Shown one piece after another: positions 55,062-57,773 of a DNA stretch of 64,000 nucleotides. The notes under the pieces are model-generated. The model did not search any database, was not told the DNA's origin, and saw nothing but the letters and a program-made list of their open reading frames with translations. The position numbers and the translations under genes were made by a program. The stretch lies in NCBI GenBank assembly GCA_964574655.1, contig CAZNOH010000002.1, forward strand, positions 172,596-236,595, in the 5' to 3' direction. Numbering within the stretch: position 1 is the first letter of the stretch; each line of letters begins with the position of its first letter. Source of the DNA: an uncultured Candidatus Saccharibacteria bacterium. Its GTDB lineage: Bacteria > Patescibacteriota > JABMPQ01 > JAQVVF01.

Positions 55062-56516
55062 ATGCCTAATTTTTTCAAAAAATTTACAGTCACGCAACTT
55101 TTAGCTCTTGGTTTCAGCTTGCTCATTATTTTATGGGTGGCGGCAGGGGTAGTTGTTTATTTAAGTTTTGTCAAAATAGAAAAAGGCATTAATCAGCTCA
55201 CCACTATTTGGCGGCCGGGCGCGCGATATACGAGAGAGTTGCGCATTGAAAATATGAAATATTTCGCGTCTCATAGCGAATATATTGAAGGAAATCTTGC
55301 CTGGCATCATGCCAAAGAAGATAAAAAAAGCGAAGATGAGGCAAATATTGCGCAAGAAAAATATTTTAAAGAAGGAGATGAAAATTTTCAGAACTCTATC
55401 GATAGCTGGCACAAAATTCTTGAAGAACTTAAAAAAATAAATTTTTCTGATCCCAAAATTTCCGAAGGTGTTTTAAAGCCAACAGCAAATATGGAAGAAA
55501 TGGAAAAATATAGAAATCAGCTAAAGGCTGCTTATTTGGCTAATGACGAAGGGTTAGCTTCAGAAGCAATGGAAAAATTTGACACGATAACAAGAAAAAA
55601 CGATCAAGACTTGCTTAATCTCCAAGAAATGATTGAGAATAAATTGGCCCAAAGCACAAATGATCTAAATAAAACATCTTCTTTTGCTCGCAAGGCGATA
55701 ATTATTTTAGGTCTTGCCGCCATATTTTTAAGCATTATTCTAGTTATTTTCTTATCTAAACTAATTAAAGATGTTTTAGTTAAATCTATAAAACAAATTA
55801 TTTCTGCTACTGGACAACTTTCTAATTCTGCGCAAAGTACATCTTCTGCTTCCACACAAAATGCTTCTACAACTCAGCAGATTGCTCAAGGCGCGGCAAC
55901 GCAATCAAAACAAGTAGAAGAAATTTCAAAAGCTATAGCTGAAATGGCCGCGGCAATATCACAGATTTCTATTGCCGCCAAAGAAATTTTGCAATTATCC
56001 GCCAAGACTTCTCAAACAGTTCAGATAGCCGGAGAAAAATCAGAGAAAATTAATAAATTTACCGAATTAATTACTTTTATTACTGAACAAACCAATCTTT
56101 TGTCTTTAAACGCCGCGATTGAAGCGGCGCGGGCCGGGGAAGCTGGCCGAGGTTTTGCCGTAGTCGCTGATGAAGTCAGAAAATTAGCCGATCGCTCTTC
56201 CAAAGCCACTGATGACATTAAAATTTTAACTAAAGATATTATGGCTGGTTATGAAGAAACCGTAAAAGCAACCTCGGGATTAAATCGCAAAATTCAAGAA
56301 ATATCCTCTGGTGTGGAACAGCAATCAGTTTCAACACGGCAAGTAGCGAAAACTATGGATTCTATTGCCGTTGTCACAGAACAGCACGCTTCATCAGCTC
56401 AACAGTTATCAGCCTTGAATCAACAGCTAAATTCCGCCAGCCAGCAAGTTTCTGCCACGGCCGCGCAATTAGAGGGATTAACGAAAGAATTGCAAAAATT
56501 AGCCGGGGGGGGGTAA
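55062..56516 (+). CDS. Methyl-accepting chemotaxis protein (4HB-type sensor, no HAMP); ends in a G9 tract
   Basis: '[36 protein letters not shown]'. C-terminus '...LAGGG' is encoded by G9 at 56505-56513. Confidence 0.9.
56505..56513 (+). repeat. Homopolymeric G9 tract at the 3' end of the MCP gene
   Basis: 'agccgggggggggtaa'. Confidence 0.9.
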
Positions 56517-56618
56517 AGTTACAAGCAATAAACAGCAAATTAAAAAAATAAATATTAAAGATTTATGATTAAAGATTTTAGTTTGCTTTAATCATAAACT
56601 TTATTAATCTTAATCTAT

Positions 56619-57773
56619 ATGAATAAAAAAACAACGATCATTCTCTTGATTGTTCTGGCCACGGCAATTATTTCCGTTGCTGGAATGATCACTGCCTCAT
56701 CGGTTAAAAATAAAATGACCGACAATTTAGTTGATGTCTACGCGGAGCAGGAATTATTAGTCGCCAAACAAGTAGCCAAGATTACTAGTGGAGAGGTAGA
56801 AGATATTCGGGAAAAACTCAATTTAATTGCTAAACTTCCTGAAGTAAAAACAGGAGATACTGAAACTTGCAACAAAAAATTAACAGAAGTTCTTTCTGGA
56901 ATGGAGGAAAAACTCTCAAATATCGGTCGAATGAATGCTCAAGGTGTTTTTGATTGTTCAGTAAATCCAGCAGCTCTTGGCGTTGACGGCAAGAAAATCG
57001 CCCATTTAAAGCAAATTATTGAAGATCCAAAACACGAAGCTGTGCTTGGCTATTTAATTCCTCCTGCTCCTGATGCCGCTGATCCGCAATATGTCACTTC
57101 TTTGCATGTTCCAAGATATGATGACAACGGCAATTTTATCGGCACTTTAGGCGGAGCAATTAATTTTGGCCAGTTTCAAGAGCAATTCTTAAAGGATATT
57201 AAATTTTTGAAACAGGGCTATCCAGTGGTTCAAGATGACAATGGCGATATTCTTATGCATCCACGCAAAGATTTGATGGGGAAAAATATGTGGTCAGAAG
57301 AAATCCAAAAATTAACAGGAAAAAATCAGAAATTTAACGATGCGATTAAGATTGCAGCCGAACAAGGAAAAGAGGGTAAGGCGCGCTATACTTTTGAGGG
57401 AAAAGAAAAAGTTTTAGTCGCAGTGCCAGCTAACATTTTTCCAAACCGGCGCTGGGTAGTTTCTGTCACCGTGCCAATCGAAGATATAAAAGAAGCAATG
57501 CTGGGAGTAAAAGTCGGGCAGCTGCTTAGAAATCAAACAATTATTATGTCTGGAGTACTGATTTTGGTATTCATTATTATTTTAACTTATATAATAAAAA
57601 CAGTCTTTAATCCTATAAAAGAGTTGGCCGAGTCAATGGATAAAATAAGCAAGGGCGATTTATCAATTAAACTAAAAGTTAAAGAAGGTAAAGATGAAGT
57701 TGGTCTTTTAGTCCGCGCTTTTAATCGCATGGTTGCAAGTGTAAAAATCCTGCTCGAGCGGGGGGGGGGGTAA
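56619..57773 (+). CDS. Cache-like extracytoplasmic sensor + TM + HAMP protein lacking any output domain; ends in a G11 tract
   Basis: N-terminal TM, periplasmic region, second TM, HAMP 'IKELAESMDKISKGDLSIKLKV...EVGLLVRAFNRMV', then 'LLERGGG' stop. Confidence 0.7.
   Translation: MNKKTTIILLIVLATAIISVAGMITASSVKNKMTDNLVDVYAEQELLVAKQVAKITSGEVEDIREKLNLIAKLPEVKTGDTETCNKKLTEVLSGMEEKLSNIGRMNAQGVFDCSVNPAALGVDGKKIAHLKQIIEDPKHEAVLGYLIPPAPDAADPQYVTSLHVPRYDDNGNFIGTLGGAINFGQFQEQFLKDIKFLKQGYPVVQDDNGDILMHPRKDLMGKNMWSEEIQKLTGKNQKFNDAIKIAAEQGKEGKARYTFEGKEKVLVAVPANIFPNRRWVVSVTVPIEDIKEAMLGVKVGQLLRNQTIIMSGVLILVFIIILTYIIKTVFNPIKELAESMDKISKGDLSIKLKVKEGKDEVGLLVRAFNRMVASVKILLERGGG
57760..57770 (+). repeat. Homopolymeric G11 tract at the 3' end of the Cache-HAMP gene
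   Basis: 'gagcgggggggggggtaag'. Confidence 0.9.

Follow-up and report, generated by a model that had tools for sequence, protein, structure and literature searches.

Eight genes of Helicobacter canadensis carry 3′-terminal tracts of G11-G14, after which 1-22 residues follow in the three reading frames, and variation of these tracts has been seen at the read level (Snyder et al. 2010, PMC2823697). This class, “C-terminal phase variation”, has also been described for Neisseria gonorrhoeae (Zelewska et al. 2016, PMC5320596). Here, we analyzed a window of 64,000 bases (33.6% G+C; all position numbers refer to this window) from an uncultured Candidatus Saccharibacteria bacterium, in which two poly-G tracts form the ends of two consecutive genes of a chemosensory (che) cluster. 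The first, a run of 9 G's on the + strand (G9, 56505-56513), makes up the last three codons (GGG GGG GGG) of MCP2 (55062-56516, +), which encodes a methyl-accepting chemotaxis protein (MCP) of 484 amino acids (aa) with an MCPsignal domain, and is directly followed by the stop codon TAA at 56514-56516. The second, a run of 11 G's on the same strand (G11, 57760-57770), provides the last codons (cGG GGG GGG GGG) of a gene for a 384-aa protein with a dCache_1-transmembrane-HAMP architecture (56619-57773, +; hereafter the dCache-HAMP gene), and is likewise directly followed by TAA, at 57771-57773. We read the tracts as genuine slippage-prone repeats of the C-terminal phase variation class, which would make this a repeat-rich, contingency-type chemosensory locus, and we give this reading an even chance.

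The resemblance to H. canadensis and N. gonorrhoeae is close in several respects: the last codons of the genes contain 8-14 nt of poly-G, each of the three frames is closed within a few to about 20 codons, a protein is always made but its C-terminus differs, and the tracts cluster in particular loci. The differences lie in the host, which here is an uncultured environmental member of the Patescibacteria rather than a host-adapted pathogen, in the genes, which here are chemosensory, and in the placement of the tract, which abuts the stop codon and leaves zero residues after it in the observed phase. In addition, the length variation of the H. canadensis tracts was seen in reads, whereas the tracts described here are known from two identical assemblies.

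Direct reading of the sequence and a homopolymer scan agreed that the MCP2 coding sequence (CDS) ends in ...KLAGGG* and that of the dCache-HAMP gene in ...LLERGGG*. This confirms what the initial annotation, made by a model from the letters of this DNA, had stated, namely that both runs encode a terminal Gly-Gly-Gly and abut the stop codon in AT-rich DNA; its description of them as classic slippage-type tracts also stands, as their length and composition match tracts known for slipped-strand mispairing. G9 and G11 are the only G or C runs of at least 7 nt in the window, the next longest being a single C6. Under a first-order model with the observed G-after-G frequency of 0.176, 0.017 runs of at least 9 nt and 0.0005 runs of at least 11 nt are expected per window. 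GGG is the rarest glycine codon, accounting for 4.0% of the Gly codons outside both tracts, and it is used in none of the six other Gly-Gly-Gly tripeptides encoded by genes in the window. For a TAA directly after the run, we estimated a probability from base composition of about 5% per tract and about 0.2% for both, before adding the requirement that the stop be in frame. Neither chance nor codon choice accounts for the G9 and G11 tracts, which are a real feature of this DNA.

The sequence before G11 is unusual as well. The 11 bases that precede the run (CCTGCTCGAGC) are GC-rich, embedding the tract in a GC-rich patch, CCTGCTCGAGC-G11, and the four full codons before it, CTG CTC GAG CGG (CGG extending into the tract), are rare: their synonymous frequencies multiply to about 1e-5. 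Simple expansion of a run does not explain this patch of GC-rich, rare codons. The patch is a strong codon-usage outlier within the dCache-HAMP gene, and the 23-nt string at 57746-57768, AAAATCCTGCTCGAGCGGGGGGG, encodes KILLERGG. When 241 million metagenome records were scanned, this string had a single exact match, which lies within a GC-rich, IS3-like transposase (L012, 4609-4631) that reads ...LKILLERGGWEVN; the similarity ends at 23 nt, and the match is probably a coincidence.

Two Logan contigs of run SRR13723394, which come from a different assembly pipeline, were reached via the MCP2 protein and via a 75-aa protein encoded 3′ of the dCache-HAMP gene. The contig that spans G9 (L001) and the one that spans G11 (L003) both match the window at 100% identity; run SRR13723393 likewise contains the organism. 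These data bear on the explanation that the tracts, or their exact lengths, are a sequencing or assembly artefact, arising from two-colour Illumina poly-G, homopolymer miscalls or a chimeric join. Although long G runs are error-prone on most platforms, and both assemblies may share the same or sister read sets (SRR13723393/SRR13723394), two different assemblers gave the same sequence across both tracts, between coherent flanks. Neither tract lies at the end of a contig, both are, at 9 and 11 nt, far shorter than read-end poly-G artefacts, and each is followed by an in-frame stop and a normal spacer. Furthermore, the ends of both genes coincide with those of their homologues, and therefore nothing has been truncated or joined. 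We find an artefact hardly credible. The initial annotation had entertained homopolymer read errors, which for the existence of the tracts are unlikely on these same grounds; a length error of ±1 may be present in G9 or G11.

Gene identities in the che cluster were assigned from Pfam domains. For the gene that ends in G11, only dCache_1 and HAMP were found, and PF00015, the MCP signalling domain, is not present. A protein search placed its product in a family of 378-433 aa from Patescibacteria (sources include Patescibacteria group, Ca. Niyogibacteria, Saccharimonadales and Paceibacteria), all members of which are without an MCP signalling domain. The assumption of the initial annotation that this second gene also encodes an MCP must therefore be dropped. 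The closest homologues terminate 4-15 residues past a shared ...VASVKIL... helix. We rejected the idea that G11 marks the truncation of an MCP, since the family natively lacks the MCP domain and has the same end point. In the nearest relative (P0002, locus L002; 54% identity), the 3′ end of the gene reads AAA ATA TTA ATG GAA GAC GAA TCC CGT TAG, without a G run. Homologues of MCP2 end in ...L(E/Q)KL(A/T)G plus a tail that is variable, mostly Lys-rich and 0 to >60 residues long, and G9 directly follows the conserved ...LQKLAG end of the MCP2 signalling domain. Judged by these comparisons, both tracts sit exactly at the border between the last conserved helix and the unconserved C-terminal tail.

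Such a position is also what would be expected if the tracts were tolerated by-products that switch nothing: a G-rich codon pair at the end of a gene would have grown by slippage and persisted only for want of harm from a shifted frame at the extreme 3′ end, and its location would reflect purifying selection elsewhere. A plausible seed for such growth exists in MCP1, the paralogue of MCP2, which has GGC GGG where MCP2 carries G9 and reads ACG GGC GGG CAA at the equivalent place, one substitution away from G7. Both tracts lie past the last conserved residue, and all three frames are closed within 17 nt of G11. The relatives are without tracts, and the tracts are therefore young and not conserved: a scan of species-representative genomes returned eight loci only, all distant and all without tracts. 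However, a by-product of this sort would have to account for two expansions 1.25 kb apart when the 64 kb, with about 57 gene ends, contain no other, for their co-occurrence in one locus with two further repeats (described below), and for the CTG CTC GAG CGG patch, which at about 1e-5 goes beyond simple run expansion. We therefore consider this explanation possible, if on the unlikely side.

For the purpose of predicting what a change in tract length would do, we rebuilt both genes in silico with tracts of every length between 6 and 15 nt and mapped the stop codon of each frame. At the observed G9, MCP2 ends in ...AGGG* without extra residues; G8 adds 17 aa and G10 adds 12 aa, the two values that had been predicted initially and that proved correct on rebuilding the gene. 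The shifted-frame region spans 56514-56568 (+), with the G10 frame stopping at TAA 56549-56551 and the G8 frame at TGA 56566-56568. For the dCache-HAMP gene, the observed G11 ends in ...RGGG* without extra residues, G10 adds 1 aa (K) and G12 adds 5 aa (VSKRK). Its stops lie within 57771-57787 (+), where TAA occurs at 57771, 57775 and 57785, closing all three frames within 17 nt, and any frameshift therefore adds at most 5 aa. In other words, every frame yields a full-length protein with a different short C-terminus, for both genes. Fusion of neighboring genes by frameshift was rejected, because every shifted frame stops within 17 codons or fewer. The alternative tails of MCP2 are Lys-rich (the tails overall are Lys/Asn/Ile-rich), as expected from a translated AT-rich spacer.

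The pentapeptide by which MCPs tether CheR and CheB has the form xZxxZ (Z being aromatic; NWETF-type) and is located at the extreme C-terminus, after a flexible linker. The tracts described here also concern the extreme C-terminus of a chemoreceptor, past an unconserved linker, and the initial annotation had pointed to this region as the one where MCPs often carry the tether. However, the alternative tails contain no aromatic residue in any frame of either gene, and therefore no xZxxZ pentapeptide is possible; neither gene gives an aromatic-containing pentapeptide in any frame. In addition, no CheR gene was found within the window by Pfam assignment and a survey of the locus. A role of the tracts in toggling such a tether is thus not borne out.

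Two further repeats accompany the poly-G tracts. A perfect dinucleotide repeat, (AG)14 (53001-53028, +), lies 77-104 nt upstream of the start of MCP1 in a 240-nt spacer and is the sole dinucleotide repeat of at least 5 units in the window. The 12-mer that comes after it, AAAGAAAGTAAA, has its only other exact copy 7 nt past G11 (57777-57788). The part of the cheA CDS that encodes the linker behind the Hpt domain contains a perfect tandem repeat, (GAAATCAA) x3.9, at 60687-60717 (+); its unit is 8 nt, which is not a multiple of 3, and the kinase would be frameshifted if one unit were gained or lost. Seven simple-sequence repeats were flagged in the 64 kb, and the four strongest, (AG)14, G9, G11 and the cheA 8-mer, are all located in the 10.5-kb che locus (52.9-63.4 kb), with only (AAC)5, (ATTT)4 and (TATTTA)3 in the other 53 kb. 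Repeats are thus clustered in the che locus relative to the rest of the window, as in known contingency loci. The che loci of nine other Patescibacteria, about 140 kb in total, contained no G or C run longer than 7 and essentially no such repeats. A (CTA)16 trinucleotide repeat was seen near the che locus of a Ca. Gottesmanbacteria genome (L007, 2709-2756).

It is because the tracts co-occur with (AG)14 and the cheA 8-mer that the cluster takes on its contingency-type appearance. The likeness to the ON/OFF contingency loci of Campylobacter, Helicobacter and Neisseria consists of an AT-rich genome that otherwise avoids G/C runs, tracts of G9-G11, and several repeats in one functional locus. The difference is that the tracts of those loci are located 5′ in the gene and switch it off, which the poly-G tracts described here cannot do. 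Among the repeats of the che locus, only the cheA 8-mer could switch a protein off, and only (AG)14 could act on transcription. Under the phase variation reading, one G gained or lost in replication would move the reading frame; MCP2 would alternate between being tail-less, at G9, and carrying a Lys-rich tail of 12 or 17 residues, the extra residues of the dCache-HAMP protein would alternate between 0, 1 and 5, and the tracts would together with (AG)14 and the cheA 8-mer repeat constitute a contingency locus for chemosensing. By analogy with what is established for the mutability of G9-G11 tracts, both may change length at a rate that is useful, and may matter to the cell.

Several observations weigh against phase variation. 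Changes in length touch unconserved tails only and their effects are small, so that the consequence of a tract change at the protein level is probably slight. The stops in all three frames within 17 nt of G11 look more like damage limitation than a designed switch, and by our estimate from base composition the extensions are no longer than expected for an AT-rich spacer, with no visible selection. In each gene the observed phase is the “immediate stop” one, the run is followed by TAA, and G is on the sense strand, a shared phase and strand that hints at a constraint other than random switching. A difference in tract length was not found, G9 and G11 being the same in two assemblies, a sampling too thin to speak against variation. 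None of the eight predicted alternative-phase proteins was present among about 15 billion public proteins in an exact look-up, for a lineage that is almost unsampled; both protein clusters have a single member in that collection. In protein searches, no relative of the dCache-HAMP protein exceeded 54% identity, and the nearest relative of MCP2 was its own paralogue. Protein searches, a scan of genome contigs and two scans of metagenome DNA found no other strain; one metagenome scan was empty, and the other yielded just the 23-nt transposase match, so that neither returned anything relevant to the tracts.

The spacers behind the two tracts share features that bear on an explanation at the level of RNA. 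After MCP2, an AT-rich hairpin or palindrome is located at 56556-56603 (+), which starts with the motif TAAAGATTTATGATTAAA and has a core stem of 13 bp (56562-56574 with 56586-56598). After the dCache-HAMP gene, a second AT-rich hairpin or palindrome is located at 57785-57833 (+) and starts with the motif TAAAGATTTAAGATTAAA. An 18-nt motif, TAAAGATTTAWGATTAAA, which forms the 5′ hairpin arm, is common to the spacers after both tract genes and has exactly 2 copies in the window. The palindrome GATTAAA-N13-15-TTTAATC occurs three times in the window, against 0.05 expected, and only in che-cluster spacers: one with N13 in the hairpin after MCP2 (56567-56593, +), one with N13 in the hairpin after the dCache-HAMP gene (57796-57822, +), and one with N15 in the cheW-cheY spacer (58683-58711, +), where there is no G tract. 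This palindrome may serve as an operator, or as a hairpin for RNA processing or stability, but it does not have the form of a canonical terminator. One shifted frame per gene stops in or at a hairpin: the TGA of the G8 frame of MCP2 (56566-56568) falls inside the 5′ arm, and the TAA of the G12 frame of the dCache-HAMP gene (57785-57787) consists of the first three bases of the hairpin motif. Two other roles for the tracts were rejected. They are not a duplicated 3′ module or a target-site duplication around the dCache-HAMP gene, since what the two sites have in common is limited to G(n)TAA(A)G and the 18-nt motif and does not extend into a longer repeat. They are also not promoter spacers, as they do not lie between plausible −35 and −10 hexamers, and promoter-like matches were not above shuffled expectation.

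Based on these features, the G runs might act at the level of RNA or translation, instead of or besides changing the protein, and this could take several forms. Where the stop falls with respect to the intercistronic hairpin would set how far the ribosome reaches, and with it read-through to, or stability of, the che genes further downstream; the G run would be a roadblock to exonucleases that protects the upstream receptor mRNA; the G run would be the target of a C/U-rich small RNA (sRNA); or GGG-GGG-GGG-UAA would act as a shifty stop, at which ribosomal or transcriptional slippage gives two isoforms. That both runs are sense-strand G, followed by TAA and then by an AT-rich hairpin with the same 18-nt motif, argues for an RNA-level role, as do the three che-spacer palindromes and the shifted-frame stops in or at the hairpins. 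Control of a chemoreceptor mRNA by an sRNA via a G-repeat is also known: the tlpB mRNA of H. pylori has a variable G-repeat in its 5′ leader, which is bound by the C/U-rich loop of the sRNA RepG (PMC8295292). Both that repeat and the tracts in our window are homopolymeric G repeats on the sense strand of a chemoreceptor transcript, readable at the RNA level; the difference is that ours are located at the 3′ ends of the CDSs and not in an mRNA leader. We rejected a RepG-type, sRNA-targeted G-repeat on the basis of this 3′ position and of the lack of any C/U-rich sRNA candidate within the window, where no intergenic candidate was found and the matches were Shine-Dalgarno complements or coding sequence; such an sRNA may be encoded elsewhere in the genome.

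The hairpins themselves speak against an action at the RNA level. A terminator scan found no intrinsic terminator at 56556-56603 or 57785-57833, the stems consisting of A/T only and being followed by no clean U run; their fold z-scores are weak (−1.7 and −0.2), and the hairpins match no family in Rfam. Furthermore, the third palindrome occurs without a G run, and a natural bacterial precedent for an exonuclease block by G9-G11 was not found. We therefore regard an RNA-level role as unlikely. More speculative still, and in our view very improbable, is a combined model of a four-switch chemosensory island, in which the poly-G tracts, rather than serving to alter the proteins, would shift the stop of the ribosome toward or into the GATTAAA...TTTAATC hairpins and so stochastically tune the read-through or stability, and the stoichiometry, of the dCache-HAMP protein, its 75-aa partner and cheW-Y-B-A. 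If true, such stop-shifting would be phase-variable translational attenuation in an environmental ultra-small bacterium. After cheY, a strong hairpin (59096-59150; z = −3.5) combines a GGACGG/CCGUCU stem with a U-rich tail. No other terminator in the che cluster looks canonical, and this one separates cheB-A-C-D from the upstream genes.

By its Pfam content, the region 53105-63440 is a complete chemosensory cluster. Its first gene is MCP1 (53105-55051, +), with dCache_3 and MCPsignal domains, followed by MCP2 and the dCache-HAMP gene. Then come the open reading frame (ORF) of the 75-aa protein (57850-58077, +), cheW (58083-58688), cheY (58733-59092), cheB (59198-60250), cheA (60254-61963), cheC (61980-62606), cheD (62599-63075) and a gene for a second receiver protein (63072-63440). 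The 75-aa ORF has no Pfam match and is 55% identical to a 77-aa ORF in the same place in a distant relative (L002, 3276-3509), which indicates that it encodes a conserved small partner, as predicted from sequence, of the output-less dCache-HAMP sensor family. The whole cluster is flanked by a pair of paralogues with a Bro-N domain, both oriented the same way (51981-52865 and 63703-64000), which share 44% protein identity and, at their 5′ ends, about 110 nt of DNA that is about 90% identical. The arrangement of this pair suggests a putative island or deletable cassette.

Elsewhere in the window, some other compositional outliers were seen. The 3′ end of a minus-strand gene at 10734-12188 coincides with a GC-rich outlier (10718-10766), its last codons containing CCTGCCTAC twice and a CCTGCC...GGCAGG hairpin, and directly after its stop a perfect (ATTT)4 is found, which is (AAAT)4 on the strand of the gene. 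A gene for a 1328-aa protein with CBM_4_9 and Y_Y_Y domains (45824-49810) lies in a block of 42% G+C, compared with 33% for the window, and is preceded by a CCCCCCTTCTGAGAAGGGG hairpin at 45782-45800. This gene may have been acquired horizontally.

Chemotaxis genes are rare in the Patescibacteria, also known as the candidate phyla radiation (CPR) superphylum (PMC7137472). Full-text literature searches on the topic found no report of homopolymer-driven phase variation in CPR/Patescibacteria. To our knowledge, nearly all simple-sequence contingency loci on record come from pathogens adapted to a host, for example Campylobacter, Helicobacter, Neisseria and Haemophilus. What is new here is therefore the host, an environmental CPR bacterium, the class of genes, and the presence of four repeats in one chemosensory locus; the mechanism is already known. 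The spectra of tract lengths in existing metagenome reads offer a concrete and cheap test. Should the tracts prove invariant, a small puzzle of sequence evolution would be left, namely why G9 and G11 stay fused to stop codons at 33% G+C. If the phase variation reading is true, a chemosensory locus laden with repeats would suggest stochastic diversification of sensing in these ultra-small and probably host-dependent cells.

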